Below, piece after piece: positions 16,521 through 37,833 of a stretch of 64,000 bases of DNA; the first letter of the stretch is position 1, and each line of letters opens with the position of its first letter. The stretch is from Schmidtea polychroa (Eukaryota). The stretch covers positions 217,496,001-217,560,000 of the forward strand of contig CM097885.1 in the NCBI GenBank assembly GCA_044892525.1. Direction: 5' to 3'. The translations under genes were made by a program, and so were the position numbers. The notes beneath the pieces were generated by a model that worked only from the letters and a program-made list of their open reading frames with translations, did no database searches and was not told where the DNA came from.

Positions 16521-16926
16521 TATGAGAATGTTCGTGGCACCCTCTGGTAAAAAAAATCTTCATTTTAGATGCATGTTGAGCTATAGACCCGTGTTGGGCT
16601 GAGTCGAAAATTTAATCGTTGAAAAATAAGAAAGTAGGGAAGTAGAACATTAAGAAAAATAAAAATAAAATAAATAAAATCAGAAATAAAATAGAATAAG
16701 GTATAAGGAAAATAATAATTAAGACATAAGAATTAAAACAAAAAATAAAATTAAGAAAAGATTAAAATAGAACAAGTTGACAAATAAATAAAGAGGAATT
16801 CAAGAAATAATAAGGAAATTAAGGAAATAAATAGAAAAACATATTAAAAATAAAGAAAATAAGGAGAAAACAACCTAAAAACAAGAAAATTATATTAAAT
16901 TAATAGAAATAAGCGGTACTCAACTC

Positions 16927-17060
16927 TGATTGGTCCGCACAAATAAGAATTTGATATATATACAACTACCAAAAACATTAAATTTACTGTTAACCCCGAG
17001 CATTTCATAGGTAAGAAAAAATGTTTACTGTTTTGACTGTTAACCCCGAGCATTTCATAG
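16927..17060 (+). promoter_or_regulatory. LTR core promoter: inverted CCAAT, TATA-like box, predicted TSS 16986, 25-nt exon 1 and 50-nt intron 17011-17060
   Basis: ctgATTGG at ~16927-16933 and TATATA at 16955, 31 nt before 16986. AG|GTAAGA donor at 17011 and TTTCATAG acceptor at 17060. The same geometry occurs in the diverged solo LTR (TATA 58878, TSS 58848). Confidence 0.6.
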
Positions 17061-19466
17061 ACATCTACAACTCACGGAGACTTATTTCAAGGATCAGCAA
17101 TACAAGTAGAGCAACAGTTAATTCGAAAAACTTCACAGCAATTCGAACTCAGTCACAGCAATCGACATTCGACGAATTATCATCAGACTAATTTGGAACG
17201 ACTAACGTTAATTTTCCGATTCAGCCTAATTCCATAGTAAGGGATTTTTATTTATGATATTGTTTTTCGAAGTTAATAGTAAATATGTATATTTAATGAG
17301 TAATTAAACTTTTAAATTTAACCAGACTCTCTTTTCATTTGATCCTGAATAACGATTTTGATAAAGTAAATAATTTAAATGTTTAAAAGTATGTGTTGGT
17401 AACAGGTGAACTCTTACATAATTTTTATGGATATTTATTTTGAAGTGATAGTTTTATGATTTCTAATATTAACGAGTAACGTGGAGTTGAGATACTCCAT
17501 GTCATGGTATGAGGTGCCTTCGGGAGCTCAGCCGGTGGACATGGAGTATTTCAATCACGCAGCTAGATTGGGCCGAAATGTGAAGGCTTCTTCACGGGTC
17601 CAATTGCTGAAGGACTTAAAATCTGTCAGAGTACCGAAATATAGACCGAAAGGAAACCTTATGAAATTTTCGAAAATAGGATATGTGCTTCACAGCGACT
17701 GAGGGAGTTCTCATATTAACTCTGTATTGTCCAGAGTCGTCTTACAAGACATTCATGCCACTTCTGTCTATAAATCCGAACTTACCATGTGGGGGAAAAT
17801 ACCATTAAACATCCATCGCTGGTTTTTCCAACATATCGAGAAGTTGAAATTGCATTCGGTAGACTTTTGAAAAAGTAAATCTAATTTAGGTCATCTCTTT
17901 CAGATGCGACATCCAAATCTTAGCATATGATGAGGAATTTACAATAAAGGAAAAGTAAAACATAAAACCACAATAATACTGTATTCAATCACATATATTA
18001 ACAAAATCTGGTAATACCCATTGAATAATTTTCATGCTGTTGCGTCGAAATATCCACTACTGAAATATGCTTCATAGAGTCTAGTTGGCTGGTTCGTAGA
18101 GATCTTCCATCGTTCAAAAGCATCCAATATTGAGGAAATTACGAGTCGTAGTAAATAAATCCAACATCATAAGCTCAGATGGGAATCGACACGCGATGTA
18201 ACATTTGCAGTTCGCTCAGTACGGTTGATAGTTACAGATAAAATTTCCATCGAATAGGCACCCATACATACAGACATACTGCTAACATAACTATGAGTAG
18301 CGTCATCCGGTCAGAAATATGCATGAGAAACAGCAGAATCATTCCGAATGCCTCTCACCGCAGGGAATGCCGCCATGTGTCACCCTCTCTAGGATTCTTA
18401 GTGTGTGAGTAGTAATCAGTGGTCCTATTAGATAATGCTGACATGAGATGTGACTTCCAGATGACTGACTCTTAAATTTCACTACTGATAAAGGCCATTC
18501 GTACCACTAAAAAGATAAGCCAAATAACCAGTAACCGACTACTAAGATAAGGGACTCTCTAAAGTGCACTCATTAAAGATAATTTTGCTTAAATTAAATA
18601 TTCTAATTAAAAATCGAAATTGTTGAAGGGGTATTTTAATTAATAACCGAAAATTCAAACCAAACTTTATAACTAAACCATAGGAAGTTTTACCTAAGTG
18701 TTGTAGAGGTTTATCGTAATTCTAATTAGATGTTACAAATAATAGTAGTAGCCTTCGAGCCAAATTTAAATTAACTAAAGTATCTACAGGAATTTTTGGG
18801 TTATAAAATAGCTAGTAATATTGTAGTTAAATTTCTCATATTCCCTGTAAATGACGTATTGTAATAGAAAACTAAATCCGATAACAAATTATTATGTAAT
18901 TACAATATTTTTACGATGCTATATTTCTACGACGATATCACCGTATGGTATGGATAAGGGGTAATCATAAAATAGTGACGTATAGTTTATACGAAATTAC
19001 GAGTTGTTACTTATTCCGCTACTTGAGGTAAGGGTGCAAGTTTTTACTAGTTGCATTTGGTCCAAAAACCTTATTTTGCATTAGAATAACAACAAATAAT
19101 CAGCGAAATTTAAACGAAGTGTCGTATAGTGTATTTGTAATGAAACAGGGTTATTCGCTCCGGTATGAATAAATCCGTAAATTGCCTTTATGTGCGATAG
19201 ATAGAAATCCAACTCGAACGCGATAGACGAAAATTAAAATTTTTACAAATAATTTGCATTCGTCAGGGAAGCAATCAGGGCGTTGGGGAATAATTTTCAG
19301 TAAAGGATACGTAAAATATTAGTAATCAAGGGTGAAGGGAGGGATCCTGTTTCATCGACTCGTCTTGTTTTCTTCCAGCACTAAGTATCCAATAGCGAAT
19401 AAACCGTATATCTGATCCGAAATTTTTAGATATAGTCACCATAGTTTTCTTCTTTAGCCATCCATT

Positions 19467-20219
19467 ATGTTATCAAACAACAAATCAGCTCTACGTCCCT
19501 GCTTCTCCTGCTCAGATAAAAATGCAGTGATTAAAGATCTTCAAGCCCAGATCGGTCGATATAAACGAAAAATCGACGAGCTGGAAGGGACATGGTTTAG
19601 TCCCGCTCGGATGAAGGAGATCCAAAAGAAGCTCGATCGTAGCGAGCATTGCCGGGACGCGCTAATATCTGAGAGCCGTGCCCAAAGAAGTCTAATCAGA
19701 GAACAATCCGAGGCACTGCATAAGGTTTACGTGCAGGCGGCTACAACCCGAAAAATTGTGCAGATTCCCATCCGAGAGGCCGATGACATCTTTCCGCCTC
19801 ATCACAACCTTTCCTCGAATCCATCTCCACCGTTCAAGAGACCGTGCCGAGACTGCGTCGAAACCGAATTTTCCCCCAAGCGACCAGATGTTGTCGTCAC
19901 GGGTACCAGTAAGCCCCCCAATGCTAGTCCATCTGTATCAGTCACCCTTCTGCAAGTGGCATCTTCAAGCAAACCCAAGCGCAAACAACTCTCTCGTGCG
20001 GAGCGCAAGAAGAGACAGCGCGAACGCGCCACTACCAAGCCAAACATCCCATCAATAGAGGACTCAACCAACGGTGGCAACTCTCACGTGTCCATCGACC
20101 TAACAACGGGACCCTCAGCGCGAATCATATCAGCCGCTGGCGTAACGTGGGAAGAGAACGCTTCCGAGTTTTTTAACCTCGACGAATTATTCGCCGACGC
20201 TGAATGGGAGAAACAATAA
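19467..20219 (+). CDS. LTR-encoded 250-aa protein of unknown function (CxxC, coiled coil, basic NLS-like tract, acidic C-terminus)
   Basis: Intact in both LTRs; homolog in the solo LTR. Preceded by a pyrimidine tract and AG (19456-19457); AATAAA at 20343. Confidence 0.8.
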   Translation: MLSNNKSALRPCFSCSDKNAVIKDLQAQIGRYKRKIDELEGTWFSPARMKEIQKKLDRSEHCRDALISESRAQRSLIREQSEALHKVYVQAATTRKIVQIPIREADDIFPPHHNLSSNPSPPFKRPCRDCVETEFSPKRPDVVVTGTSKPPNASPSVSVTLLQVASSSKPKRKQLSRAERKKRQRERATTKPNIPSIEDSTNGGNSHVSIDLTTGPSARIISAAGVTWEENASEFFNLDELFADAEWEKQ

Positions 20220-20760
20220 AACCCCAGTGGCGGTCAGGATGAAGAACAAGGATCCGATCTATGTTGATTATGATGTTTTCTCTTCTTTCGACAAACATTA
20301 GTAAAGTGTACAGCTGAATCCTTGTGTCATAACGTTGAAATTAATAAATCTTGTTGTCTTACACGTTTTCGCTCATGAATAACTAGACTTTAATTAAGTG
20401 GGTTGAGTAGAGAACCCGCCAGATCTAGTGAGAAATTCCCAATTTGTATTCAGCGAATCCTGATAAGTGGTTGTGTAAGGAAATGGACGTAAGCCCTTCT
20501 AACGGCAGTCGTGAATGGGAAGTCGAGGCCTCAGCAAGGAGTAGTTTTAAGGCAGAAGCTCACCTGCTTGTTGGCGTCTCGCCTGCATAGTGCAGTACCA
20601 ACGTGAAGTGATTCACGGGCACTATGTTGGAAGAAAGTTATGTGGGGTTTCACTCCAGGTTGACAAATCGGTGGCACCTTTTATTCGAGATGGACAATCA
20701 ACCCTTAGACCCGTCAACATGGTAGAGTGGTCAGCCGAGGTGTAACCCCAACATGATTTT

Positions 20761-21577: not shown

Positions 21578-22180
21578 AACGGCCGGCGATGTAACAGCAA
21601 GTATACGATGTTTGAACAAGAATGCATGAAATTGTTGAAGTAACACGTACTGTTAATGATTCAATCTTTATGTTTATGATAAATAAATCCGTCTTTAAAA
21701 AGTTTTGATGATTAGGACTAATAAAATTTGCATGACGAATGAATATTTGCGTGTTTGTTTTGTTTTAATTTTTTTTTCGGAATCAAATGAAGAGAGGGTT
21801 GAATAACGTGGAATTAGTCCCAATATAGACTGCAGGGGTACAAACCGAGCCACCTTCGGGCGGTACGTCTTATTGCAAGAACCCGTTGGGAGGGGATAAC
21901 TGATCAACCCAAGTAAGAAGCGTAGGGCGGGGTACCATCGCATATGATGAGAAGTTTTTGCGACATGACTGATCACCATGCCAATGTAGAAATGGATCAT
22001 CGCGATCGTCGTGCGTTTTGAGCAAGGGGGGAAAGGGGAAACACTCCCAAGCGGTAAAGATTAAGTCGACAAATTAAAAGTAGACAGAGAAAATGGTAAA
22101 CTAGAGTAAAAGAAGAAAAAGAGAAATAGAAGCATGCAGAGCGAGGAATATTGAAGCCGAGCAGTCGAATAATCCAGCCG

Positions 22181-22669: not shown

Positions 22670-23979
22670 AGGCCTAGAAAAGCGAGAGATAGCAGTTAAG
22701 CTACAATGAGATAATATTTAAATTACTAGTGATATGGAATATTAAAGCTAGCTAGAACAAATTGAATGTAATTTTGAAAATTCGAGTTTAGAGAGGAAAT
22801 AAACGAGCTCGTGGAAAAGAAAATAGGATTATAATGAAAAAGGAAAGGGAAGAAGGAAACGAATTAAAGAGATAATAGAAAATAAAGAATAGATGAAACG
22901 ATGATAATGAGTAAAGAGGAAAGTAACTAACTAACTAAAGGGATCCCAGTGAAGTAGAGAAACTCTACGGAATATTTTTTTTTGGTTAAACCGGGAAAAT
23001 GCATTTTATTGGTTCCAGAGTAGAACCGAGCTTAATAATAGTGAATATGAAAAGTAAAATAGCGACAACAGCGCAAAAGGATTAGGAAAATGAAAGGGGG
23101 GTAATAAGCAGAGACCGACAACGACCTATTTTTACTATAATTGATAACGAATAGATAATTATTACGACTTTATAGATAATTGTTACTACCCCATATAGAT
23201 AATTTAAAATCGACGGAAAATACGGGCTGATGGGATATTATAAACCGCAGACAGGATTTCACAAAAGATAGGGGAAGCACAAACAGAAACCTAAAAGGTG
23301 TCTGTTTTTGAATGTTGTAGAAAGAATGATGAAGTCGTGTAAGCAAATGCAACACGAGATCATTTTTTCATTTTAGATATCAAGCCAATCCAGCCAACCA
23401 AGACAATCCAGAACCTGCACAAAAGGAATTCGAAGAAAATCGACAATCAACCAAGGATAAATCCATTCAGAACCCGCACCGAGAGACACAGCAACCGGAA
23501 GACTCCAGAACGGAAGAAGTATTAGCAGCCATCTGCCAAGGATTAGTAAATCTCCTCAGGATCTCAGTAGCAGATTCATACAGAATATTTATCGAAGGAA
23601 ACACAATCAGAACCGAACGCGTCCAATTCAATAGCCACTAATTACCAAGAAGCGTAAGAAAGGAATCACGGATAAACCCAATCTTAGATCTTCTAGTAAG
23701 CCAGGAGACGTATTATTTTCAGGAGACGAATTACAACAACTCAAGAGAGGACGATCCATTAAACATCAAAGAGGAATATCACAAGGATCCAGAAGAACCA
23801 ATCAAGTACCCATATTCGACCAAGAAAATCTCGGATATACCCCTAGTCGATCTCGAAGTAGAGAAAGTCTGTCCGATATCACTAATAGTTTAGCAACGTC
23901 AACCGAGGAATTATCAGCCCAAAGTTTAGTCACATCGTTAGACAATTTAAAAGAAACAGACGAACCTAGAACACCAATC

Positions 23980-26900
23980 ATGACGAATGTCGTAAAAACC
24001 GACGAGTATAAAGAGAAGTTCAGAGGAGAACCGTTCAACGGAAATGCAAACAAGCTAGCAACGTTCATAACTAATTTTGAAGTTTATATCACTGTGTGTG
24101 GATGGACACCCGAAGCAATTAGTAAAAGGATGCCGTTGTTTTTGTGCGATAGTGCATTAGAGGTATATTTAGAAGCTAAAGAGAGAGACACGAAATTAGA
24201 AAAGTGGGAAGATATTAAAACATTCCTGAAGAAAACCTTCGGAGCCAGTAAGCCAATCAACCAGGCGTTGGGCGAACTAGCAAATAGGAAACAAAGAGCA
24301 AACGAATCGATAACATTATATGCCAGTGAATTGCGGAGATTAGCGAAGAAAGCAATGAATGGAAAATTACCCGAAGAAAATCTGATCGGTTATTTCATAG
24401 AGGGATTACGCCGAGAAGAAGTAAGAGCCTCAGTAGGTTGTCAAATGTGCAAAACATTAGAGGAAGCCATAGATTGGGCTACAAGATGCGAGCTCCACCT
24501 TCCAGCTCAAATGAATCTTATGCAAGAGGAGGGAAGGATAGCGACAGCAATAGCGAAAGCGGATAACGGAGATAACAACAATCAAGAACCGAAAATGAAT
24601 CAATTTATACCAGGAGCGCACCAAATTTTCAAACCACCACAAGGACGATCAAACGGGAATAATGGTAATCGTAACAACCCGAATAATGAGAACAATTTCA
24701 ATAATCGGCGAAATATGAACGATAACAAGCAGTGCCGAACATGCGGTAAACCAGGACACTGGGACAGAGATTGTTATAGAAATTCAAATTGTAATCGTTG
24801 CGGACGGCGTGGACATACCGAAAATGTATGCCAATTGCGAGGCTGTTTTAACTGTGGTCAGCCAGGTCACATCTCCAGAGATTGCCGAGAAAGGGGCCAA
24901 CAACAACGACCACCACAGCGAAATAATAATTATATAGCGAATCCGCAACGACAAAGTAACCCTAACGAAGGAAAACAAATGAACGTTATGCAGGAAATTT
25001 CGCAGATGAAACAGATGATGCAACAAATGATGAGACCAAGACAAGAATCAGCACCACAACAAACCCAGAATATACGTATGATGAGGAGTACCGAAAATCT
25101 CAACAATTATGAAGTGCATCAACATGTACAAGAATGGCAAAGGCTACAGGCCGAGGAAGAGAGGATAAAACAAGAACGCAACCAACAACGACAAGAACAA
25201 CCATTGCGAATAAATATGATGAAGTTAGTAAAAGACATGAAGAGCCAGTATTGCTACAATTACGGGAAAAGCCCAAGGGTAGTACCCATGACTGAACCAG
25301 AAAAAGTAAAGGAAATAACAACGGAAATGAAAACAGAGAATTCAACCACGATTTCAAAAGGAAACCAGAGAATTCAGAAAATATTCTGGAAAAAGATAAA
25401 GGATAAAATCGAAAAAGAACATAATAAAGCGAAAACCGAGACAGAAGATGAAAATAACAAGAGCGAGGAACAAACCAGTCAACTAAATCACCAAATGCTA
25501 CAAGAATCAGAATCAGAAGAAACAACAATATTCGAAAGAAAGAAACTAAAGAGAGTACCAAGGATGAGAAACTTGCAAATCAATATGATGAAAAGGACAA
25601 AAGATGTAGCATCGTCAGACGAAGAAGAAGATTATGTAAGTAGTTTGGGTGGAGAAATACTACAGCCGAATGAAATAAGCGAACCCTCAAAAGGGGAAAT
25701 CAAAGAGGAAGAAAGCGGAAACGAGATAACCAGTGAAAGTGAAGACGAAGATATCGAAATAAAGTTGAGAAAAGCAAGGGAGGAAGCGATAAAACAGGTA
25801 GCCGAAATACTCCCAGTAGTAGTGAGGAACCAAGAGTTCATCGACGTAATACCATTCAGGCGATTCGTGCAAAAAGTGATGAAATTGGAAAGAAACGAGA
25901 AAGATCTAATACCAAACGAGGAAAAATCAATTATAAAAAATTATATGGAAAAAATGAAGCAGGCCGATACCACGCGGTATGTAATAAAAATTGGAACGAG
26001 TAGAGGACTTGAAAGAATGTGGATAAAAAATACAGTCACCGACGAACTTTTCGATTGGATACGAGAACATTTGGGAAGTTCGAGAAAGAAAGAATATCTG
26101 TATCAATACCAAGGAGAACAGATCAAACCAGATATGCACTTAGTAGATGCACTAATATGGCCAGGAGAAACGCAAATACTGAAGTTGCATAAAGAAAAAC
26201 AACTAGCCAACCTTTACGACTGGGCTAAAGATGCCAAGGCAGAATATGATTTTAATATCAAATTGAAATTAGAACAAATAAAACAATGTACTCTGAGACG
26301 AAACCTGGATAAGCTGATCAAACAAATTCAAGAACAAGTAGAAGACAACTGGGATTTACTCATCACCAGACGAGCCCCAGCCATGTACGAACTAATGAGC
26401 CGGTTGCGAGATACAGAAATGCTCCGAATGAGTGATTGGAGAACCATAAATTTGATCCACAAATATGGAAGGTTAAGAGAAACCCAGCCACAGAGGTTGG
26501 AAATAACCATATGGTTACCGAACGAAGAAAAACGACGAATAAAAATGAGCAATCAGAGTACAGTGGATGACTTGGTATCAAAAATAAACCAAGAGATAAC
26601 GGAAAAGGTACGTAGCGAAAGTAGTGATGGTATGGTGGATGATGTAGTCATGATGTACGATAAGATAATATTACGAGCGGAGGACGACACCTCGTTAAGC
26701 GAAATGGGTATGTGGGACAATCATCAGATAATCAGGATAGTACCAATGGATGAATTCCGAACAAGAGATGTAACATATCAAAAAGAAATACGAGACCGGA
26801 TGAAAACGTTGTATCAAAAATCTACAGAAATAATTGAAATCCACCAACAATGGTTAAAAGAAAAAGAGCTACAAGGAAAAATCACGAAATTAAATACCAG

Positions 26901-29900
26901 ATCCTGCAGACGAACCCCATGGGAAAGAGTGTGGAATGCAGAAAATAAGGAATGGGAAATCCGGAAAGGAATCTTCGTAGAAACAGACATTGGTGAGACA
27001 GAAAGTGAATCGGAGGAAGAAGAAGAGGAACCCCCAGAATATGAAGAGGAAGCAAGGGGACAGACATCAGATGACGAAAGCGAGACGGATGTCACATCAG
27101 AAAGCGAAAATGAAGCGAGACATATTCATGCAATGAGGAAAAAGGAACGTGAATATGCTGATATGGACGGCGAGGAAGCGACGGAAGCAAGAGAACGAGA
27201 AGAGAAAGAAAGATATAAACAATTAGGCGATATTTTAGCAATGGGAGCGAAAAATCAAAAACGCCAGGTAGTAGCGTTGGCTAATATCATCTTAAAAACA
27301 TCAGAGAATATCCACAATCTGAGAGGAATGGCAAAGGCAATAGAGGAATACCGGCAATATAATGAATGGTATCCAGAACAGCTAGAACAAATTATTCGAA
27401 AATGGAGAAATCAGGAATGGGCACAAGACACCCAGGAGAGGTATCACATCCGAATCAAGTATCCGGACAAGAGCATCGAGGAACTAGAGGTGCATCCAAC
27501 AACAAAAATTAGAGAATTAAAAAAGAAATTAGCATATGAAACTCCATTCCATCTGCAACTGTTCGGAAAATCACTAGACGATAATGCAGACGTCGGGATA
27601 ACACCCATGAGATTGGAAGAGACAAATGTGTTAACAATGGCAGAAACGTTGGGGAAACCGTTAAAAAGGAAAAGTAAAATTATTAAACCAACAAAAGGCA
27701 GTTTGAGTACTCCAAGTCCGAACAAAGCACCAAGTAAATCTAATGAAACTGAAGAAGTTGAAGAGATAATCCTGGAAGATAGTGACGATGAACCAGGAGA
27801 AAGATCACCGCTATTAGTGAGATGGCCGACAGGAGCCGAAATGTGGACTAATAACCAGCCATCAACGAGTTATCAACAACCAACGAAACTGAACATCGAA
27901 GAAATCATCGACAATACTACGGAAACCGAAACGGATGAACAATTCCAGAAGCAAAGAGAACCAACGAAAGTAACACCAGAAAGTCAAACCGACAAAATAA
28001 TAGACGAATGGAATGAGTGGCTAAGAAATAACGATAGCTCATTACCCAGAACGGATAACGAAAGAAATCCGAATTACGAAAATACCAGAGAAGCAGGAAC
28101 GATGATGGAAAAACGGGCAAAAGGAAGACCCAAGAAACAAGGAGAAAAGTCTGAGTTCAAAACCAAAGAACAATTAAAGCAAGAACAAGGGCAAGTTCGA
28201 TTAGAAAAATTGGATAAAATAGTATGGGATCTAAAGGAAGCCCAACCAACGATCGAAAGAGGAGAAAAATGGATACGAGAATTGTTAGAAGATATGTTAA
28301 TAATAACAAACCCACAACTTCGACGTTTGTGGCAACGGAAAGTAGCCAGTACGGAAGCTAGACAATTATGGCACACCATTTCGGGGATAATCCCAAAGTT
28401 AATCAAAGAGAAAACGAAAACCACCAAAACGGATTGGGACGAAACAAAGAGAGTGATTGAGCAGCTCACGACAAATGCAAATGATGACGAGCATCACCTA
28501 GTGGTAATCACTTATTTGATGTATAATTTGATGGGACTAGCTGCGAGGAAAATACCAAATAAACAGTTTGCAAATCATGTAGAAATGACCGTTTCAATCA
28601 TAGAGAATACTATTGAACCACACATTATTCGTGCAGGAGGATGGAAAAGACTGATACAAGCGCCACGGAAAAATGAGCAAGAAAGGTCGATGCAAGTTAG
28701 ATTGAAAAAACTGTTAAATGAACTAGAATGGGAACTACCGATGAAAGATCCCGCAAGCAGAAAAGCATCAATAAATTCGTTAATGATGACTATGATGATA
28801 TGGATGTTGTGCACAAGTGGAGCAACAGGTTTCACCATCTACGATTGTGATAACATGATAATGAGAGATAAATACTCATTGAGAGACATAGAAGAATGCA
28901 GACAAGCCTCACCCAACAAATTGGACATCGTGAGAACAAAAGTTACTTACCATGTATATCAAGAATCAGATTTCATCAGAACGCAAGCAAGGGAATGCGT
29001 AGTATCAAAAAAGGTACTCGCATATTACTGTGGACAATATTCGTATTCGACTCTTATACTACCTGGTCTGGATAAAGAAATCGTATCAATACAACGAGAG
29101 GATTGTAAAGAGCTATTTAGAACCGGAGCGCTAAAAATGCATAACGGAGTGACGATTCACGGACAAACTGGAATGATTAAAACCGAAAGTGTTTACGTAT
29201 CCGGAAAAGTAAAATCATCAGATGGGTCATGTAACGGAGGTACGTATACGATCCGAGGCGAGGTAATATCGGGAGTAGTAGTGATCGAGTCGTACACGGT
29301 CGAATTAAAAGAATACGAAGCGCAATTTGACGCAAATAATTATCAAATGAAGACCAACCCAGCGTGTAAAGCTACAGAAAACGTATGCAGGACAGGAGTA
29401 TCAACTATAATCTATGAAGCTAATACCCAAAAATGCCGACTCCAACTGTTAAAAAGTGCTTTGTTCAATGAAGTAAAAGGAGAAATATATGAGAACGAGA
29501 ACGACGAGGATGGAAACGACAGAGTGAGAATGCGAAATGGAAAACCAATGCCACCATCTCCCAGAGAAAAGAGACTTTCAACGCAGAAGACACCAACAGC
29601 ATTAATCACAGACGATCCAGATCTAGGTATGAGATTTATCAAAGAGAAAGAAACCACCAAATGTGACAGTATAGTATATAAAACCAATTACGCAGGCATC
29701 TATATGTCGAGACAAATAATCGATAGAGCAGTGGGAAAGATAGCAACGGAGGACGTAAAACTATACTTATATGCAAATAATAAAATGGATTTTCTATTTC
29801 ATCGCGGACAAACGACCTTGCAAAAAGTATATTACGATCTGATACAAAACGATTGTTCATTGAATAAAGAAATATTGAAAACAAAGCTAGCTATTGCGAT

Positions 29901-32900
29901 AACGCACCCAGATAACACGATGCCATCACTCCCATTACCAGATGGACACTTTGGTAGAATGGTAGGAGAAGTAATGTACACATACCAGTGTACCAAGACG
30001 TATGCACGAATGCCAGAAAAATCCATACTACCCGAAAAGAGATGTGCAAATGAATTAGAAATCCGTTATAAAGGACAAAATCGATTCGTCCAACCAGTCA
30101 CTAGAATTATGAATCCAGTGGGTTTCTACCCAAATCTCTTTAACTGTTCTAATGCATACGGACCTTTATATGAAAGGCCCGATGGGAAATGGATGATGTT
30201 ACCGGGAAAAACCATATCCGAGGAGCCCAAGAAATTTGGATTAATAGAACTCGCCACAGAGCTGGATTTCAAACCTATAGACGTGTCAAACGGTGGTATG
30301 TATTCCCCAGAAGATCTAGAAACAGCACGACTTAACGTACTCTTTCCAGCCAGACGAGAATCCATTTTGTCAAATATGGTTACAATAACGGGGGGAACAA
30401 ATTATCAATCAGGCCCGAATTACGAGCTGCTATTATCGCCAGACCATTTTCAACAGGCTACGTCAAACATGATGAAAGCAATGTGGGGAAGATTCTTAGT
30501 TTTTGGACAAATGATGGCCGGGATATTAGGGATCATACTCATAATTCAGATAGTCAGAGTAATACTAACACAAATGTTAGCTTGTTTCGATATATACAAG
30601 CGGGAAAAGAAAGTTAATTGGAAAATGATAGTAGGCTTCTTACCATTTTTAGCTAAGACCATGGTATTACATGGCCACTCAAAAGACATTCATCGGATAA
30701 AGCGATTGATTAAAATATTAACAAAGATTAAAGGAACCGACGAGGAAGTAGGCAGACGATTCCGGAAAGTAATGTACGATGAAGCAACAAGACGACAATT
30801 GAAAAAGAATAAGCCAAAATTCTTGGACCGATTTAGAAGCCAATCATCTAACAGCGATAGTGACGACGATGATAACGGGAACGATAAATGTCTTTATCCA
30901 AACAGAAACCCAAACGAAAAACCAATGGAAACGGCACCATATTGGGAAAAGGAAAAGACAAACACCTGGATCGCCAATGGAAGCTATATACCACCGGATA
31001 TCGTGGGACCACAAACAGCTTTGACCATGACACAAAATATGTATCCGCAATTACCGAGTCAACCCGGTATGCATTATATGCCAACACGACGTACCAAAAG
31101 TGTAGATCAAGCAGATGACGTAAGAACAATAGCAGCGATGAGTTTACCTGGAGGTCCAGCAGTAACAGTTATGATTCAAATCAATGGTAAAGAAACCAAT
31201 GCTATGATAGACACCGGAGCTAATGTATCAGCGATAGCGATTAATCAAATCCCCAGTAAACACTGGAAGGATATCGAATCAACAACAATTCACATCATAG
31301 CATGTAGTAAAGAAACAGTGGACGTGGTCGGAAGATGGTGGACTACATTGAGATACCAGGACAACGAAATTGAAACGTATTTGGCAGTAATACCAAAACT
31401 TAGCGTACCATGCATAATCGGAACGGATTTGATGCCAGAATTATTAAAAGAAGTCGTAATAGACTTAACAACTATGTGTCTAAAAGACAAAACCGGTAGA
31501 ATATGCAAAATGAATGCAGTAATCAGATGTCCAGAAAAAATAATAGTACCAGCAAAATCGCAGATGATTTGTCAGATAAAAGTGGATACGGGTATGGAAG
31601 GAGAAGTTATCTTTGAACCAAGCAAGTCATTCGAAAAGCGACGAGAATTACCACTCGCAAGAGAAATAATCACAATAAACCAAGAAGGAGTGATACCGCT
31701 CAACATCACGAATTTCGAAGAGGAAGACAAAATCATTTATGAGAACGAAAAATTGGGAAGATTGACCCCAATGATGGACATAGAATTACCGAAAGTGACC
31801 AACGAGATGATCAAAGATGATGAATTATGGACAATAGATAGTATGTTGTTGACGAATAATGAAAAGAAAAAATTACACCGATTGTTGGTAGAATATAAAG
31901 ATATATTCGCCATCTCAGACTTAGACTTGGGTACATGCGATGTTACCCTACATGCAATACCCCTCATAGATGAAACTCCAATTGCATTAAGACCATACAA
32001 GCTAGCAGAAATGCAAAAAGAAATAGCCGAAGCAGAAGTACAAAAGATGCTAGACGCAAAAGTAATCGAACCAAGTTGCTCACCCTGGCAATTCCCAGTG
32101 GTCATGGTGAAAAAGAAAGATGGCACCCAACGATTCTGTATCGATTATCGGAAGTTAAACGCAGTGACCAAGAGAGATACCTATCCATTGCCAGACATCA
32201 ATGAGATGTTATTGATGTTGCAAGGGGCAGCATATTTTACTTCTTTAGATCTAAAAAGTGGATACTGGCAGATTAAAGTCAAAGATGAGGACAAAGAGAA
32301 AACAGCTTTCACGTTGGGACGAGATCTATATCAATTCAGGAAAATGCCATTTGGACTGACCAACGCACCAGCATCATTTCAACGGTGTATGAACTTTGTC
32401 ACCCATGGAATCAAACAATGTATGGTATATATTGATGATTTACTAATCTATTCAGCGACATTTGAACAACATCTAGAAGATATCCGAAACGTATTTATTA
32501 GATTAAGACAGTGGAAACTCAAACTCAAACCATCAAAATGCGATTGGGCAAAGGAAAAAGTCACGTTTTTAGGACACATAGTGTCAGCTAAAGGAAAGGA
32601 GCCAGATCCAAGAAACATTGAGAAAATAAAAACATGTCCAGCACCGAAAACTGTCACCCAAGTTCAGGAATTTCTAGGATTATGCGGATACTATCGCAAA
32701 TTTATCAAAAATTATGCAGGAATTGCAAAACCAATCCAGGAATTAGTAAAGAAGGACATTTCGTTCTTATGGGGGAAGGAACAACAAGAGGCGTTTGAAA
32801 CGCTGAGAGACAAACTAATCGAAGCACCTATCCTCGTACACCCAGATTTTAAGAAGCCATTTCTATTGGCAACGGATGCAAGCGGGTACGCGGCAGGCGC

Positions 32901-35900
32901 GATTCTGGGACAATTGGACGATGAGGGAAAAGAGAGAGTAATCGGGTATTACAGTCGAACATTCAAAAAGCACGAAAAGAACTATTCGGTAACAGAACGA
33001 GAAGCATTGGCTATAATACAAGCTATCAAACACTTCCGATATTTACTATGGGGACATGAGATATGTATAACCACAGATCATCAACCATTAGTGTGGTTAG
33101 GGCAACATAAAGAAGCGTCCAGTAGACTGATGAGATGGGCCATGCAATTGCAAGAATACTCCCCATTTATAAAATTTAAAGCGGGAAGAGCAAATGCCAA
33201 CGCCGATTGTATGTCAAGATTTATTTTCCCAGATTTGGTGGATTCAGAAATGCAACGCATATGCTTGATAGTAGCGGAAGATTTGGATTTCTGTCAATTA
33301 CGAAAGGACCAACAAGAGGACGCGGAATTAAAACAAATTATCGATTATGTAAAAACCGGAAAGACAGATGTATATGCGAAAGACCAAAAATTAAAAGAAC
33401 ATATGGATAAACACCGACACCGATATATTATAGAGAAAGATTGGTTGCTGATAATGGATGGGGAAAAACGATTAATGTGTATACCGGAAAACCGACGAAA
33501 AGAGTTACTAACGCAATATCACGATGGGAGATTGGGAGGACATATGTCATCGAAAAAGACGTTAGCAAGAATGAAACAGAAATATTTTTGGCCTACGTTA
33601 ACTGAAGATGTAACCGAATGGGTAAAAAATTGTCTAACTTGTGCAACCAGGAAGAATACTGGATCGAAATGGAAAGCACCTTTAACGCCAATGCCAGTAC
33701 CAATAGAACCAATGACAATGATATCCATGGACGTAGTTGGTCCACTACCAGAGTCAGATAAAGGAAACGTTTACATTCTAGTGATCACAGACTTTCTTAC
33801 GAAATTCCCAGAAGCATTCGCGATGCCAGACCAAAAAGCTAAAACAATCGCAAAAATTTTGGTAGAAGAGATATGTTGCCGATATGGAACACCAAAACAG
33901 ATATTAACCGATCAGGGAACTAATTTTATGAGTGAGATAATGAGCGAAGTAACAAATTACTTCAAAATAGCAAAACTAAGAACATCTCCATACCACCCTC
34001 AAACCAATGGGATGACGGAAAGATTTAATGGAACACTTATACAAATGTTATCAAATTACGTCGATCGTCACCAACGAGATTGGGACGAATATATAAACCT
34101 ATGTCTTATGGCGTACAGAATGTCAATTCACGCATCAACGAAAATGAGCCCATTTAAATTAATGTACGGAAGAGAGTGCAACATGCCAATGGACCTGGAA
34201 TACCAACCACCGATATCGCAGTATATGGAGATCGATGATTATGTTACGAAATTCAAGGAAAGAATGCAAGAAATTTGGGAAACTGCGGGATTAAATATCA
34301 AGTTCTACCAGGAAAGTTATAAAGATTTACACGATCGAAAGAAAAACGTGAAGCAACATACGTTCCAAACAGGTGATTGGGTAATGATAGAAACCCCGGA
34401 ATTAATTCCAGGAACCACAAAAAAATTACAACGCAACGGAAAAGGACCATATGAGATCTTATTCGTAGGCGAAACTAATGTAAGAGTGAAATTGGTAAAT
34501 AACCCCTTTACCAGACCAATATACGTAAACGTGGCACGATGCAAATCAATTCCGAAAACAGCCACTAGTCAACCAGAAGGCCGTACATTAACCACACGTT
34601 CGCAAACCTACCGAATGAACATGATGCAACAACTCGCAGAACCGATCACTGGACGATTAGGTATCCAACCATCAGAAGCGGAAAAGATTGTAAAAGAGGT
34701 AAAAATTAGAATACCTGGATGGGCAAAAGATCGATTAGATTTCGAAATATTAGGAGGATTATTGACGATGATCGAGAACTATGCAAATAGAGAAAGGACA
34801 CACCCATTATTGCGAGTAGTCAAAAGCCAATGGCCAATATTATTTACAATAACAGATCACTACGGAGACACACCATTACACAAACTCATGAAAGTAGGTA
34901 ACAACGAGCAAATACTAGAAACAATAGAAGCATTTCACGACTGCAAGCGATCAACAGAACAAACAAACAACCAAGGTTACACACCATTAATGATAGCCGC
35001 AAACAGAGGCAAAACAAAAGACATTATAACCGCATTACTCGATACTGGATCGAAAATAACTACACAAGACCACGGGCGGAAAAACGCTCTACATCATGCT
35101 ATCGAAGGGAGAAGTACCGAGGCGTTCACGTCATTGATGGAACTACTATCATATGAGGACAATCGAGAAGTCGGAAACATGTATGATGGATTGTTAACAG
35201 CGATCAAAGAAAAACTGACGACAATTACCGGAATATTAATTACATGGAGAAATCCAATTCAAAACGATTATATGATCAACGTAAACGAAGCGTTCACGAG
35301 AGGAGAGAACACGCTGATGAGAGAAGCTATGAAAGGACATCATTTATTCGAAATTCCGAATCAATTACTAGAACGAGGGATAAAATTCACAAATCATAAA
35401 GACGAACAGTTAGCAAAAAAGCGAATCGACACATTCGAAGAATCCCTATTCCAATTTACTAACCAAGTACGAAATAAATATTGGGAAACGGTAAGTGTGT
35501 TATATATGATGGACACAATGAACAACATCCGCGAGAATTACCTGGATATTATCCAAATACTTACAGCAGAGGAACGAATCAATAATCCAAACGGAAAGAA
35601 AACGAAAATAAGGTATGAGAAATCCAGGGAATCAAAGTCAACAACGAACCAAACGGTCACAAACAACGTCATCGAAACCAAATCAATGAGTATAGATCAA
35701 GAGGCAATAATACGCAAAGCAAAAGAAGTGTTCTTTGAGGAAATGCTAGAGCTGCCAGACGAAATAATATTGTCCAAAATAATAAAAGCCGTACACACAT
35801 ACGCAAGAGATCAAACCACGGGTTTAGATATCGGGAAAATCAAAACCTTCTTGCCTCGAGCATTTACGATGGTAACGAAGGATTCCAGAACACCCCTACA

Positions 35901-37833
35901 ACAAGCAATACTAGCAGCGAAAGAAAATAGAGCAATAACGATCATGAGAATCCTTGGAGAGATGGGCGAGGAAACCAACACGAAAAATGAACAAGGTGAA
36001 ACCGCCATGATGTATGCAGCTATAACGAAAATACACCCAAAAACACTCCACATCCTACATCAATCAGGATCGAAACTAGACGAAAGGTCCAACGAAGGAA
36101 ATTCCACCTTGGACTGGGCAACCATACAGCCAAACTTAGAAATGATCAGATTTATTTGCAAAAATGCGACAAAAGAAGAAGTTGAAAATATGTGCAAAAA
36201 CACATCTCAGTTTCAATGGAATACGGTACGGAAAAATCTAGAAGCAATGAAATTATTATTAACCTGGAGAGTACCACAAAATAATAAATATGCGATAAAT
36301 GTAAACGAATTCTACGAAAACGGAGAAAATGCGATGGTAAAGAATACCCTAACTAAGGGGGGGACGCCTAAAATTATTTTAATAGTATTAAATAGAGAAG
36401 ACCTAAAATTCACGCAAAATCAGAACGAGCAACAGCGAATTGGGAAACATCGTCGTATGCAATTGAGAGAGTTAGTTAAAGAATGGAATAGAAAGAGACA
36501 TGCTGCAACGGGTAGAAAAGAGTTTGAATTCGAAGCAAAATTAGCAAGAAACAGAGTGCTAACAGCATATCGCAGATTATTGAACGATATAAATGTCGAG
36601 GACGACATTTTAAACGACAGCGGGGGAGATAAACACGATGACAATAACGGAAAAGGCCGAAAGGAGGATAAAGAGAAAAGAGAACCGGAGGAGGGTAAAC
36701 CGGAAAACAAGGATTCGGATACGAAAAGAGAGGGAAACAGCCCGGGAACTAAGACCAAAGAGGAAGAAAAATCGAATAATGGAAAACAGAGGGTATGCCT
36801 ACCTTTCACTAACAAAGAAATAGAGACAAATATGATATTAATGATAATTATGCTTACCATGATAGAGTTAGTAACAGCTCCTGGAGGGACGAGGACGATA
36901 AAAGAAACCAAAGAAGCGGAGAATCAAGATAGCAAAGAGGACGAACTAAAACAAGAAAAGAAAAAGCAAGCACAAGAGCAGCAGTGGGATTTAAAGGAAG
37001 AATGGGATTTAAAGGAAAGGTGTATACTAGGAAGATGCATGTCTAGAGCATATCAGAAACTAGTACTGATAAATGAGGACACAGAACCAATAACAGAAGT
37101 AAGAATACAAGAAGCATACCGAAACCGAGACGGGAAAAGAATAACGAACGTTAAAGGAAAAGAGGTACACCTAGGAAAAGGTGGCGAAGTAGTAATAACG
37201 CAGCTCCAACCAAGAAAAGAGCACAAAATCTGTATTTCAAGATTAGGACCGGGTGAGAGATGCCATCAATATGTGACGCAGCAGCAGCCCCCGAAGGAAT
37301 ATACGGTTTGTATCTGGAGGAATGAATCAAAAAGAGAATGCCGACGATACCCGGGGAAAAGAGGAAAGAAAAGAAAAAACCACGACGAAAAGAACGAAGG
37401 CGGAAAGCACAAGAAAACCGGCGAGGAAGCTCAGGACAACTATGTTTCGGAGGAAGAGATGGAAAAAATACAAAAGATGGCAAAGGAGGGTATGAACGAG
37501 GAAATAGCAAGAATACGGGAAATGATGAAAGGAAATGGCAAAAGAGGAAACGAGAAAGGCATAGAAGCGATATCAACATTAACGAACAAGGAGAAACCAG
37601 AGAATATAAGCGTGAAGCAGATGATGTGGATCAGTGGGATAATAATAACAGGGGCCTTCCTAATTATAACGGGGGGAACAATAAAAATAATTAAGGATAA
37701 ACGACATCGCGGAGAACTAGAAATGACCCGAATCAGAAACTTCCAACATCGAGTGAAACGACCAAGTGATATCAAACAAGGACAGTGGGTGGAGGCCTGG
37801 AACGTTCAGCGCCCTCCAAACTCACGTATATAG
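23980..37833 (+). CDS. gag-pol: 4,617-aa single-ORF polyprotein: Gag(CA,3xCCHC)-3xUbl-Bcl2-Env-PR-RT-RNaseH-IN-ANK-membrane domain
   Basis: Continuous ORF. Catalytic motifs intact: DTG (31210), YIDD (32428), RNase H TDAS/E/TDH, integrase HHCC and D,D,E. Confidence 0.97.
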   Translation: MTNVVKTDEYKEKFRGEPFNGNANKLATFITNFEVYITVCGWTPEAISKRMPLFLCDSALEVYLEAKERDTKLEKWEDIKTFLKKTFGASKPINQALGELANRKQRANESITLYASELRRLAKKAMNGKLPEENLIGYFIEGLRREEVRASVGCQMCKTLEEAIDWATRCELHLPAQMNLMQEEGRIATAIAKADNGDNNNQEPKMNQFIPGAHQIFKPPQGRSNGNNGNRNNPNNENNFNNRRNMNDNKQCRTCGKPGHWDRDCYRNSNCNRCGRRGHTENVCQLRGCFNCGQPGHISRDCRERGQQQRPPQRNNNYIANPQRQSNPNEGKQMNVMQEISQMKQMMQQMMRPRQESAPQQTQNIRMMRSTENLNNYEVHQHVQEWQRLQAEEERIKQERNQQRQEQPLRINMMKLVKDMKSQYCYNYGKSPRVVPMTEPEKVKEITTEMKTENSTTISKGNQRIQKIFWKKIKDKIEKEHNKAKTETEDENNKSEEQTSQLNHQMLQESESEETTIFERKKLKRVPRMRNLQINMMKRTKDVASSDEEEDYVSSLGGEILQPNEISEPSKGEIKEEESGNEITSESEDEDIEIKLRKAREEAIKQVAEILPVVVRNQEFIDVIPFRRFVQKVMKLERNEKDLIPNEEKSIIKNYMEKMKQADTTRYVIKIGTSRGLERMWIKNTVTDELFDWIREHLGSSRKKEYLYQYQGEQIKPDMHLVDALIWPGETQILKLHKEKQLANLYDWAKDAKAEYDFNIKLKLEQIKQCTLRRNLDKLIKQIQEQVEDNWDLLITRRAPAMYELMSRLRDTEMLRMSDWRTINLIHKYGRLRETQPQRLEITIWLPNEEKRRIKMSNQSTVDDLVSKINQEITEKVRSESSDGMVDDVVMMYDKIILRAEDDTSLSEMGMWDNHQIIRIVPMDEFRTRDVTYQKEIRDRMKTLYQKSTEIIEIHQQWLKEKELQGKITKLNTRSCRRTPWERVWNAENKEWEIRKGIFVETDIGETESESEEEEEEPPEYEEEARGQTSDDESETDVTSESENEARHIHAMRKKEREYADMDGEEATEAREREEKERYKQLGDILAMGAKNQKRQVVALANIILKTSENIHNLRGMAKAIEEYRQYNEWYPEQLEQIIRKWRNQEWAQDTQERYHIRIKYPDKSIEELEVHPTTKIRELKKKLAYETPFHLQLFGKSLDDNADVGITPMRLEETNVLTMAETLGKPLKRKSKIIKPTKGSLSTPSPNKAPSKSNETEEVEEIILEDSDDEPGERSPLLVRWPTGAEMWTNNQPSTSYQQPTKLNIEEIIDNTTETETDEQFQKQREPTKVTPESQTDKIIDEWNEWLRNNDSSLPRTDNERNPNYENTREAGTMMEKRAKGRPKKQGEKSEFKTKEQLKQEQGQVRLEKLDKIVWDLKEAQPTIERGEKWIRELLEDMLIITNPQLRRLWQRKVASTEARQLWHTISGIIPKLIKEKTKTTKTDWDETKRVIEQLTTNANDDEHHLVVITYLMYNLMGLAARKIPNKQFANHVEMTVSIIENTIEPHIIRAGGWKRLIQAPRKNEQERSMQVRLKKLLNELEWELPMKDPASRKASINSLMMTMMIWMLCTSGATGFTIYDCDNMIMRDKYSLRDIEECRQASPNKLDIVRTKVTYHVYQESDFIRTQARECVVSKKVLAYYCGQYSYSTLILPGLDKEIVSIQREDCKELFRTGALKMHNGVTIHGQTGMIKTESVYVSGKVKSSDGSCNGGTYTIRGEVISGVVVIESYTVELKEYEAQFDANNYQMKTNPACKATENVCRTGVSTIIYEANTQKCRLQLLKSALFNEVKGEIYENENDEDGNDRVRMRNGKPMPPSPREKRLSTQKTPTALITDDPDLGMRFIKEKETTKCDSIVYKTNYAGIYMSRQIIDRAVGKIATEDVKLYLYANNKMDFLFHRGQTTLQKVYYDLIQNDCSLNKEILKTKLAIAITHPDNTMPSLPLPDGHFGRMVGEVMYTYQCTKTYARMPEKSILPEKRCANELEIRYKGQNRFVQPVTRIMNPVGFYPNLFNCSNAYGPLYERPDGKWMMLPGKTISEEPKKFGLIELATELDFKPIDVSNGGMYSPEDLETARLNVLFPARRESILSNMVTITGGTNYQSGPNYELLLSPDHFQQATSNMMKAMWGRFLVFGQMMAGILGIILIIQIVRVILTQMLACFDIYKREKKVNWKMIVGFLPFLAKTMVLHGHSKDIHRIKRLIKILTKIKGTDEEVGRRFRKVMYDEATRRQLKKNKPKFLDRFRSQSSNSDSDDDDNGNDKCLYPNRNPNEKPMETAPYWEKEKTNTWIANGSYIPPDIVGPQTALTMTQNMYPQLPSQPGMHYMPTRRTKSVDQADDVRTIAAMSLPGGPAVTVMIQINGKETNAMIDTGANVSAIAINQIPSKHWKDIESTTIHIIACSKETVDVVGRWWTTLRYQDNEIETYLAVIPKLSVPCIIGTDLMPELLKEVVIDLTTMCLKDKTGRICKMNAVIRCPEKIIVPAKSQMICQIKVDTGMEGEVIFEPSKSFEKRRELPLAREIITINQEGVIPLNITNFEEEDKIIYENEKLGRLTPMMDIELPKVTNEMIKDDELWTIDSMLLTNNEKKKLHRLLVEYKDIFAISDLDLGTCDVTLHAIPLIDETPIALRPYKLAEMQKEIAEAEVQKMLDAKVIEPSCSPWQFPVVMVKKKDGTQRFCIDYRKLNAVTKRDTYPLPDINEMLLMLQGAAYFTSLDLKSGYWQIKVKDEDKEKTAFTLGRDLYQFRKMPFGLTNAPASFQRCMNFVTHGIKQCMVYIDDLLIYSATFEQHLEDIRNVFIRLRQWKLKLKPSKCDWAKEKVTFLGHIVSAKGKEPDPRNIEKIKTCPAPKTVTQVQEFLGLCGYYRKFIKNYAGIAKPIQELVKKDISFLWGKEQQEAFETLRDKLIEAPILVHPDFKKPFLLATDASGYAAGAILGQLDDEGKERVIGYYSRTFKKHEKNYSVTEREALAIIQAIKHFRYLLWGHEICITTDHQPLVWLGQHKEASSRLMRWAMQLQEYSPFIKFKAGRANANADCMSRFIFPDLVDSEMQRICLIVAEDLDFCQLRKDQQEDAELKQIIDYVKTGKTDVYAKDQKLKEHMDKHRHRYIIEKDWLLIMDGEKRLMCIPENRRKELLTQYHDGRLGGHMSSKKTLARMKQKYFWPTLTEDVTEWVKNCLTCATRKNTGSKWKAPLTPMPVPIEPMTMISMDVVGPLPESDKGNVYILVITDFLTKFPEAFAMPDQKAKTIAKILVEEICCRYGTPKQILTDQGTNFMSEIMSEVTNYFKIAKLRTSPYHPQTNGMTERFNGTLIQMLSNYVDRHQRDWDEYINLCLMAYRMSIHASTKMSPFKLMYGRECNMPMDLEYQPPISQYMEIDDYVTKFKERMQEIWETAGLNIKFYQESYKDLHDRKKNVKQHTFQTGDWVMIETPELIPGTTKKLQRNGKGPYEILFVGETNVRVKLVNNPFTRPIYVNVARCKSIPKTATSQPEGRTLTTRSQTYRMNMMQQLAEPITGRLGIQPSEAEKIVKEVKIRIPGWAKDRLDFEILGGLLTMIENYANRERTHPLLRVVKSQWPILFTITDHYGDTPLHKLMKVGNNEQILETIEAFHDCKRSTEQTNNQGYTPLMIAANRGKTKDIITALLDTGSKITTQDHGRKNALHHAIEGRSTEAFTSLMELLSYEDNREVGNMYDGLLTAIKEKLTTITGILITWRNPIQNDYMINVNEAFTRGENTLMREAMKGHHLFEIPNQLLERGIKFTNHKDEQLAKKRIDTFEESLFQFTNQVRNKYWETVSVLYMMDTMNNIRENYLDIIQILTAEERINNPNGKKTKIRYEKSRESKSTTNQTVTNNVIETKSMSIDQEAIIRKAKEVFFEEMLELPDEIILSKIIKAVHTYARDQTTGLDIGKIKTFLPRAFTMVTKDSRTPLQQAILAAKENRAITIMRILGEMGEETNTKNEQGETAMMYAAITKIHPKTLHILHQSGSKLDERSNEGNSTLDWATIQPNLEMIRFICKNATKEEVENMCKNTSQFQWNTVRKNLEAMKLLLTWRVPQNNKYAINVNEFYENGENAMVKNTLTKGGTPKIILIVLNREDLKFTQNQNEQQRIGKHRRMQLRELVKEWNRKRHAATGRKEFEFEAKLARNRVLTAYRRLLNDINVEDDILNDSGGDKHDDNNGKGRKEDKEKREPEEGKPENKDSDTKREGNSPGTKTKEEEKSNNGKQRVCLPFTNKEIETNMILMIIMLTMIELVTAPGGTRTIKETKEAENQDSKEDELKQEKKKQAQEQQWDLKEEWDLKERCILGRCMSRAYQKLVLINEDTEPITEVRIQEAYRNRDGKRITNVKGKEVHLGKGGEVVITQLQPRKEHKICISRLGPGERCHQYVTQQQPPKEYTVCIWRNESKRECRRYPGKRGKKRKNHDEKNEGGKHKKTGEEAQDNYVSEEEMEKIQKMAKEGMNEEIARIREMMKGNGKRGNEKGIEAISTLTNKEKPENISVKQMMWISGIIITGAFLIITGGTIKIIKDKRHRGELEMTRIRNFQHRVKRPSDIKQGQWVEAWNVQRPPNSRI
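24010..24885 (+). other. gag: Gag capsid plus three CCHC zinc knuckles
   Basis: Retrotransposon-gag-like block (QRANESITLYASEL...FIEGL) and CX2CX4HX4C x3 at 24733-24885. Confidence 0.92.
25975..27639 (+). other. Three putative ubiquitin-like domains (25975-26190, 26494-26745, 27439-27639)
   Basis: Each ~70-85 aa with the ubiquitin hydrophobic pattern. Example: IEELEVHPTTKIRELKKKL...LFGKSLDD vs ubiquitin ITLEVEPSDTIENVKAKI...FAGKQLED. Confidence 0.55.
28255..28665 (+). other. Bcl-2-like domain
   Basis: Helical region ending in BH2-like HIIRAGGWKRL (cf. WIQENGGWDTF). The BH1-position segment DEHHLVVITYL lacks NWGR. Confidence 0.65.
28780..30700 (+). other. env: Envelope glycoprotein of chuvirus (Jingchuvirales) G type, with internal signal peptide and C-terminal TM
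   Basis: Signal LMMTMMIWMLCTSGATG|F, then YDC..SLRDIEEC, YYCG, LQKVYYDLIQNDCSL, GEVMYTYQC, CANEL, GGMYSPEDL..LFP, then TM WGRFLVFGQMMAGILGIILII (30484-30588) and a second hydrophobic stretch. These motifs are colinear with chuvirus glycoproteins as I recall them. Confidence 0.85.
31165..34550 (+). other. pol: Pol: aspartic protease, reverse transcriptase, RNase H, integrase with GPY/F
   Basis: AMIDTGA...IIGTD; RFCIDYRKLN, LDLKSGYWQI, PFGLTNAPASFQR, YIDD; TDAS...TDHQPL; H-H-C-C, SMDVVGP, TDQG, NGMTERFN; GPY. Confidence 0.98.
34852..36420 (+). other. Two ankyrin-repeat modules C-terminal to integrase
   Basis: GDTPLH, GYTPLMIAA, NALHHA; then RTPLQQA, GETAMMYAA, GNSTLDWA. The two modules share the tail TWRxPxxNxYxINVNE..GEN, 340 aa apart. 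Confidence 0.85.

Follow-up and report, generated by a model that had tools for sequence, protein, structure and literature searches.

The hydrophobic segment between a Bcl-2-like domain and the envelope glycoprotein (Env) of a large Schmidtea polychroa retroelement is likely, judging from its relatives, a signal peptide that the Env family has inherited and that here works at an internal position of a Gag-Env-Pol polyprotein. According to our main reading, to which we assign a probability of about three in four, this inherited signal acts inside the polyprotein and the Bcl-2-like domain was captured later, directly ahead of it.

The window, i.e., the whole stretch of 64,000 nucleotides analysed, contains a young and intact Gypsy element, of the Burro kind described from planarians. 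The two LTRs differ by 2 mismatches over 4,162 bp, and a 4-bp target duplication (CCCG) is present at its flanks, both of which indicate a recent insertion. The features considered are the following:

16592-47040: LTR element (Gypsy, planarian Burro kind), 30,449 bp, delimited by LTR comparison
16592..20753, plus strand: 5' LTR, 4,162 bp, TG...CA, 99.95% identical to the 3' LTR
23635..37833, plus strand: ORF1, 4,732 codons from stop to stop, first Met at 23980 (14.2-kb open frame, Pfam)
27418..27669, plus strand: ubiquitin-like (Ubl) domain nearest to Bcl-2 (Pfam ubiquitin E 0.0042, below cut-off; designed ubiquitin variant E 0.027)
28123..28134, plus strand: AT-hook-like GRPK motif upstream of Bcl-2 (sequence)
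28252..28659, plus strand: divergent Bcl-2-like helical domain, aa 1540-1675 (profile, alignment, model, fold searches)
28483..28494, plus strand: BH1 position, DDEH instead of NWGR, aa 1617-1620 (hhalign register, alignment)
28615..28644, plus strand: BH2-like motif EPHIIRAGGW, first Trp changed to His (sequence, alignment)
28660..28779, plus strand: linker, variable in length and poorly conserved, with a basic n-region at its end (10 proteins compared, dN/dS)
28780..28830, plus strand: probable internal signal peptide of Env, with a Met-rich core of 12 residues followed by a polar c-region; cleavage predicted behind Gly1732 (Ala at -3, Gly at -1; family register, hydrophobicity)
28831..30492, plus strand: Env ectodomain, gB/chuvirus-type fusion glycoprotein, predicted mature N-terminus FTIYDC (PF24664, Monjiviricetes fusion glycoprotein, E 2.2e-70)
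30493..30567, plus strand: Env transmembrane (TM) helix, predicted stop-transfer taking the chain back to the cytosol (most hydrophobic window of ORF1)
31168..34050, plus strand: protease, RT, RNase H and integrase (Pfam)
36829..37683, plus strand: second predicted internal signal (36829-36879) and second TM helix (37618-37683) (hydrophobicity)
42879..47040, plus strand: 3' LTR, pairing with the 5' LTR

ORF1 encodes, in this order, Gag, CCHC knuckles, Ubl-like repeats, the Bcl-2-like domain, Env, protease, RT, RNase H, integrase and ankyrin repeats. For two further upstream Ubl candidates (aa 775-860 and aa 948-1040) a convincing Pfam match is absent. The AT-hook-like GRPK motif at 28123..28134 recurs in relatives with and without Bcl-2 (P0002-P0005, P0007 and P0009). 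A search of the element's own genome with 282 residues around the segment gave 93-100% identity in all of the 138 candidates scored, out of 1,872; in many of these at least 138 copies the frame likewise has 4,732 codons, and the frame from Gag to Pol is intact in many copies. Related Gag-Env-Pol polyproteins with two or three aspartic-protease domains were also observed (P0002, P0004, P0005, P0007 and P0008).

Outside ORF1, Pfam marks a RING frame upstream and a TRAF-like RING-MATH frame downstream. The upstream one is a short frame just inside the 5' LTR (21071-21577) with an IAP/MDM2-type RING finger at its end (Pfam zf-C3HC4_3, E 7e-11), while the downstream one (38391-39827) is a complete TRAF-like gene in its own frame, with RING, Cys/His fingers, coiled coil and MATH. 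A joint at 37897-39348 in two sequencing runs suggests that some copies or sister elements may be without most of the TRAF-like gene. A separate 222-codon frame at 41985-42653, with an apparent N-terminal signal and TM helix and no Pfam match, is a possible third membrane protein. Each LTR contains a 253-codon frame (19458-20219 and 45745-46506), and the 5' leader holds six 74-bp units in tandem (22180-22669). On the minus strand outside the element, a frame at 55761-56588 related to the 253-codon frame of the LTR points to a sister-family LTR, and an uninterrupted 432-codon ubiquitin-specific protease frame (50990-52288; Pfam UCH, E 5e-34) lies amid AT-rich repeats.

In regard to the domain ahead of Env, profile comparisons identify it as a divergent Bcl-2 homologue, in agreement with the original prediction of a Bcl-2 domain at this place. 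A profile of eight retroelement domains, the window's included, matches Bcl-xL with E 1.4e-4 among 177,635 PDB sequences, and 59 of the 60 PDB matches listed are Bcl-xL or Bcl-2. When the retroelement profile was aligned by hhalign with seven other Bcl-2 sequences of the same genome, the probability reached 96.4% (E 1.4e-9). Taken alone, the window's domain gives a Pfam Bcl-2 match with E 0.078 over aa 1599-1670 (14 bits, compared with a cut-off of 31.4), no Pfam match at 0.01 when used as a fragment, an hhalign probability of 34%, and no Bcl-2 chains among its phmmer matches to PDB sequences. The domain is thus borderline as a single sequence, and its Bcl-2 identity is settled by the matches of its relatives' profile. 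Pfam Bcl-2 matches, all below the cut-off, are found in five relatives, and the domain occupies a like place in three more element families of the same genome (L061, L077 and L079) and in seven public proteins. Word-index searches with the Bcl-2 profile returned nothing at near lengths and only three input proteins at longer lengths.

A structure model built on 13 retroelement rows had a mean pLDDT of 57.8, with about 80 over residues 71-140 (core helices) and below 50 over the signal. A single-sequence AlphaFold model (pLDDT 48) was set aside. In the comparison with Bcl-2 folds, suggested in the original prediction as a check, Bcl-2 chains lead both searches, but the model is moderate and the scores are low, with a best E of only 0.96 in Foldseek and, in the wide VIA search, where Bcl-2 chains took ranks 1, 2, 5, 7 and 8, a best Z of 7.4 at 2.8 rmsd over 101 residues, within the range of chance helical matches. 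The top VIA fold matches were HyBcl-2-4, Bcl-xL, A179L and KsBcl-2; an adintovirus Bcl-2 was also among the fold matches (E 0.76), and the best ESM Atlas score, 0.78, was uninformative. The modelled fold agrees weakly with the Bcl-2 assignment.

The BH2-like HIIRAGGWKRL lies at 28621-28653 (aa 1663-1673 of ORF1), starting where it had been predicted. Its GGW and spacing are preserved, and the first Trp of this W-x(3)-GGW-type motif, present in most relatives, is His here. At BH1, the loss of NWGR anticipated by the original prediction holds, but the replacement, which had been read as DEHH (28486-28497), is DDEH in the profile alignment, one residue upstream. In this register the window's domain has Glu, His and His where Bcl-xL has Gly138, Arg139 and Ile140, and none of the 12 retroelement rows spanning BH1 carries NWGR. 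As for the BH3 pattern L-x-x-x-x-D, there is no Asp at that position in the helix predicted at model residues 43-64, the helix assignment being uncertain. The G138E/R139L/I140N change in Bcl-xL abolishes Bax binding (PMC5348979), and the BH1 change in the window resembles this classic binding-dead mutant. Canonical BH3 binding is improbable because Glu stands at Gly138, His at Arg139, and the BH3 Asp is missing; most likely, the window's domain does not bind BH3 helices in the canonical way, so that the atypical groove suspected earlier gains support from the non-canonical BH1, NWGR being aligned to DDEH. The domain could be an adaptor damping host death or immune signalling through another surface, a role to which we give somewhat less than an even chance. 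It is less probable that it is structural or decaying in the window's family, and a BH3-groove inhibitor seems unlikely.

The hydrophobic LMMTMMIWMLC (28780-28812), 42 residues past the BH2-like motif and 45 past its Trp, and the ATG/F site, whose Gly1732 ends at 28830, were both found at the predicted places. The segment is laid out as an RK n-region, a 12-residue core (aa 1716-1727) and a 5-residue c-region, which corresponds to the signal-peptide pattern with its h-region of 7-15 residues; the uncharged run comprises 26 residues. Hydrophobicity was measured on the Hessa scale, ignoring position effects. On this scale the 12-residue core is the fourth most hydrophobic window in ORF1, with a gap of 1.85 before the fifth; the four windows are, by rank, the Env TM helix, the second signal, the second TM helix and the Bcl-2/Env segment, and along ORF1 they follow each other as signal, TM, signal, TM. 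The core scores -0.99, compared with a median of -1.02 for stand-alone signals (n=30), while the best 19-residue score of the segment is 3.5 versus -0.1 and 0.6 for the two predicted TM helices of the element. On the Kyte-Doolittle scale the core is weak, with lower scores in only 13 of 121 anchored relatives. As a lasting anchor, the core is weak. Moreover, the segment is internal, with 3,000 residues after it and a poor 19-residue score, and by this defining test the Bcl-2 product of the window is not a tail-anchored protein.

The family comparison covered 152 relatives, namely the best 150 of 266 HMMER matches together with P0002 and P0003. They were anchored on the YDC-type motif at the Env start, which was possible for 121, nine being too near the N-terminus and 22 lacking the motif. 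A small residue at -1 and a small or aliphatic one at -3 occur at the position equivalent to Gly1732 in 89 of the 121 anchored relatives, compared with 21-40 at offsets -1 to -6. The rule is also satisfied at offset +3 in 86 of 121, where the window has Ile at -1, and the family cleavage register is therefore not unique. A strong h-region precedes the site in 96 of the 121, and Met1 lies at most 45 aa from it in 81, among which 42 have the length of stand-alone glycoproteins (600-750 aa). The same signal, in the same register, is found in 10 polyproteins without an upstream Bcl-2 domain, including P0006. The median length of the c-region is 7-7.5 aa, alike with and without Bcl-2, and the median best 19-residue score is 3.9 for signals behind Bcl-2 and 2.8 for those without. 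The Pfam Env model itself starts inside the signal, with model positions 4-8 matching there in P0003, P0005, P0006 and P0008. From the BH2 Trp to the cleavage site, the distance varies between 42 and 76 aa (10 proteins). With Ala and Gly at -3 and -1, and with the register kept in the relatives, the signal-peptidase-like nature ascribed to ATG/F by the original prediction stands, and the site is likely a cleavage site that would put Env in the lumen.

Several other explanations of the segment were considered. The original prediction saw in it the tail anchor of the Bcl-2 protein doing double duty, and it could accordingly be a descendant of the tail anchor (helix 9) of a captured Bcl-2 gene, later taken over as the Env signal. 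Such descent would fit the position of Bcl-2 as the last domain before the signal in all 11 lineages carrying it, the Trp with which several signals behind Bcl-2 begin, and the distance of only 42-48 aa between the BH2 Trp and the cut in four proteins, which comes close to the stretch of roughly 45 aa that separates BH2 from the C-terminus in Bcl-xL. However, the same signal with the same c-region length occurs in stand-alone glycoproteins and in the 10 polyproteins devoid of Bcl-2, some of them branching outside the Bcl-2 group, and the signals behind Bcl-2 are neither longer nor more TM-like, so the double-duty claim is not supported. Furthermore, the core is not followed by basic residues, as it is in mitochondrial tails, and the linker, 42 to 76 aa long, is fast-evolving. 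The relationships among these sequences thus appear to refute a tail-anchor origin largely, and we hold it to be very improbable.

An uncleaved signal-anchor, with Env joined to Bcl-2 as a two-pass membrane protein until the protease of the element cuts on the cytosolic side, is very improbable as well. It would draw on the 26-residue uncharged run, on gB-type Env ectodomains, which have at their flanks a signal peptide and a TM domain or else two TM domains (PMC13524379), and on the flavivirus anchor C, which is cut slowly by design (PMC7601889). Against it are the short core of 12 residues, the polar c-region, the small -3/-1 pair kept family-wide at a fixed distance from the YDC motif, and the poor 19-residue insertion score of 3.5. 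It is also conceivable that Env is produced mostly from a separate message, either spliced or internally started, the segment being an ordinary N-terminal signal to which Bcl-2 is seldom attached. In errantiviruses, Env is made from spliced RNA, a precedent in favour of this possibility; the core contains five Met codons, with one more 13 codons upstream, and a single polyprotein would yield Gag, Env and Pol in equal amounts. On the other hand, many copies have a continuous frame from Gag through Pol, relatives have no conserved Met ahead of the core, and no GT..AG joint near the signal was among the joints listed for four runs (contigs over 20000-39900), which is a weak point, as the RNA origin of the contigs is a guess. 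No RNA dataset was among the sequencing runs listed for the element. We consider the separate message improbable and retain the inherited Env signal as the preferred reading.

The history of the Bcl-2 domain was followed among the 32 proteins with at least 100 aa upstream of the site. The domain is present in 10 of them, eight of which had been in the profile, while the two independent ones scored 46.8 and 27.6 bits; it is absent in the remaining 22, which reach at most 3.1 bits with the profile. In the Env tree of 33 rows (P0029 and P0038, being too short, were left out), polyproteins without Bcl-2 branch off outside the Bcl-2-bearing group as well as within it. The window's Env is joined there to its closest Env relative, the Bcl-2-less P0006 (support 92/93). 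Resolution within the group is poor, 13 of 30 inner branches being open. In the Bcl-2 tree, the ten retroelement domains tested together make up one side of a branch (87/88). The simplest history is likely one in which Env and its signal came first, followed by one capture of Bcl-2 ahead of the signal and several losses. In each of the 11 lineages carrying it, Bcl-2 is the domain immediately ahead of the signal; selection for a membrane-proximal place could be involved, and common descent fits equally well.

Selection was measured in sister families, and the Bcl-2 domain is under purifying selection in at least one of them. In two copy pairs of sister family L061 with dS >1, dN/dS is 0.11-0.12 for Bcl-2 (125 codons) and 0.37-0.43 for the linker; in the sister-family copies the signal gives 0.08 and Env 0.05-0.11. 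A younger pair of family L077 shows 0.67 for Bcl-2 on about 23 changes. The Bcl-2 domain of the window's family is the most divergent. In the search for a donor, the retroelement profile scored best on compact Bcl-2 frames (L042 with 30.6 bits, the L053 group with 22-24 bits); the best other locus had 21.7 bits, and the Bcl-2 tree resolves no donor. These highest-scoring compact frames are multi-copy (L053-L058, L046-L051 and L042), the L053 group adjoins a TBP gene, and an origin shared with a Maverick-like element is possible. In another locus group (L031-L037, G000:C4, about 89.9-90.8 Mb), a canonical Bcl-2 exon with NWGR is repeated within 1 Mb in seven copies that are nearly identical.

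The mechanism that we propose would start with the synthesis of Gag-Ubl-Bcl-2 by the ribosome in the cytosol. SRP would then take the core (aa 1716-1727) and bring the chain into Sec61 with its N-terminus cytosolic, after which signal peptidase would cut behind Gly1732 and Env would fold in the lumen. The Env TM helix would stop the transfer, so that Pol is produced in the cytosol. From the order signal-TM-signal-TM of the hydrophobic windows, Gag-Ubl-Bcl-2 would be cytosolic and Env luminal, Pol and the ankyrin repeats would again lie in the cytosol, and a small luminal domain would follow, ending in a short tail on the cytosolic side. That small domain is bracketed by the signal/TM pair at the end of ORF1. 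The region 36829-37683 would yield a type I membrane protein of small size that contains several Cys and matches no Pfam family. P0002, inspected by eye, ends with a like pair and has the same two signal/TM pairs.

After cleavage, the upstream precursor could be held on the ER by the remnant of the signal; such a tether of Gag-Ubl-Bcl-2, as in the flavivirus anchored capsid, is a reasonable inference by analogy. Release might follow through the protease of the element or signal peptide peptidase, and unless a protease cuts it, the Gag-Ubl-Bcl-2 precursor would be tethered in its entirety. The Bcl-2 domain would thereby be held at the ER surface for a time. The tether would most likely serve assembly, keeping Gag at the Env-bearing membrane, and this is likely its first role because relatives without Bcl-2 share the same remnant. 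A more far-reaching scenario, which we regard as doubtful, is that Burro elements captured Bcl-2 once and, in all lineages still carrying it, kept it flush against the Env signal, with the cut signal as a stand-in tail anchor. The result would be a Bcl-2 mimic made by the retroelement and residing in the ER, its BH3 groove closed by nature, which, together with the TRAF and RING cargo, would protect cells where enveloped particles assemble.

If the signal remnant indeed anchors a working Bcl-2 mimic, a retrotransposon would control the death of host cells from the ER, and this in an animal that relies on regulated apoptosis to regenerate. Most of the finding is already known, as the element type, the BCL2-like motif and the in-frame env have been published (PMC6431247). 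New, and modest, is the predicted membrane topology of the polyprotein with two internal signals and two TM helices, and likewise new is the indication that the signal is likely older than the Bcl-2 capture, Bcl-2 having likely been gained once and lost several times. In a literature search made without Grohme 2018 and most subscription journals, no paper stating the anchor-signal idea and no test of such an anchored mimic was found.

Among known systems, the closest are the Burro and GYPSM1 elements, for which PMC6431247 cites Grohme 2018 and Jurka 2007 and where Ubi2/SUMO-like and BCL2-like motifs and an in-frame env between gag and pol have already been published. Compared by layout with that description, the window's element is a member of the Burro kind. 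It shares the size of about 30 kb, the multi-kb LTRs and the single ORF1 near 4,700-5,100 aa, as well as the order Gag, CCHC, Ubi/SUMO-like, BCL2-like, env, PR-RT-RH-IN and ankyrin, with weak Ubl support here, and MATH/TRAF cargo is found in both. ORF1, however, has 4,732 codons here versus 4,873 and 5,140 in PMC6431247, and TRAF is a separate ORF downstream of ORF1, whereas in Burro it is inside or upstream. In planarians, expression of this kind of element rises under smedwi-2 RNAi (PMC8532177).

Flatworm GAG-ENV-POL elements with a gB-type Env, Smed_errantivirus_1-6, have also been described (PMC13524379). They have the same domain order, with a signal peptide or TM before the Env and a C-terminal TM after it. 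In a comparison by eye, Smed_errantivirus_5 and _6 come nearest to the window's Env, and _3 to sister family L061; the window's element is a related, not identical, family. The words 'Bcl' and 'Burro' are absent from the main text of PMC13524379.

Flavivirus anchor C acts as the signal of prM, and HCV core is freed by SPP; in these viruses, later release takes place by the viral protease or by signal peptide peptidase (PMC7601889). Likeness to flavivirus capsid/prM and HCV core/E1 lies in an internal signal for a luminal glycoprotein, with the upstream cytosolic protein left ER-tethered after the signal-peptidase cut (PMC7601889). This is an analogy without homology, as the signal here comes after about 1,600 residues, the domain just ahead of it has a host-derived Bcl-2 fold, and the cleavage is predicted. 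With the Bcl-2 family (Bcl-xL; PF00452) and viral Bcl-2-fold proteins, the window's domain shares, in its model, the helix 4-5-6-7-8 core, and it carries a BH2-like GGW. It differs from them in being without NWGR, the BH3 Asp and the first BH2 Trp, in scoring below the Pfam cut-off, and in its location inside a polyprotein, where it is followed by a predicted cleavable signal instead of a post-translational tail anchor.
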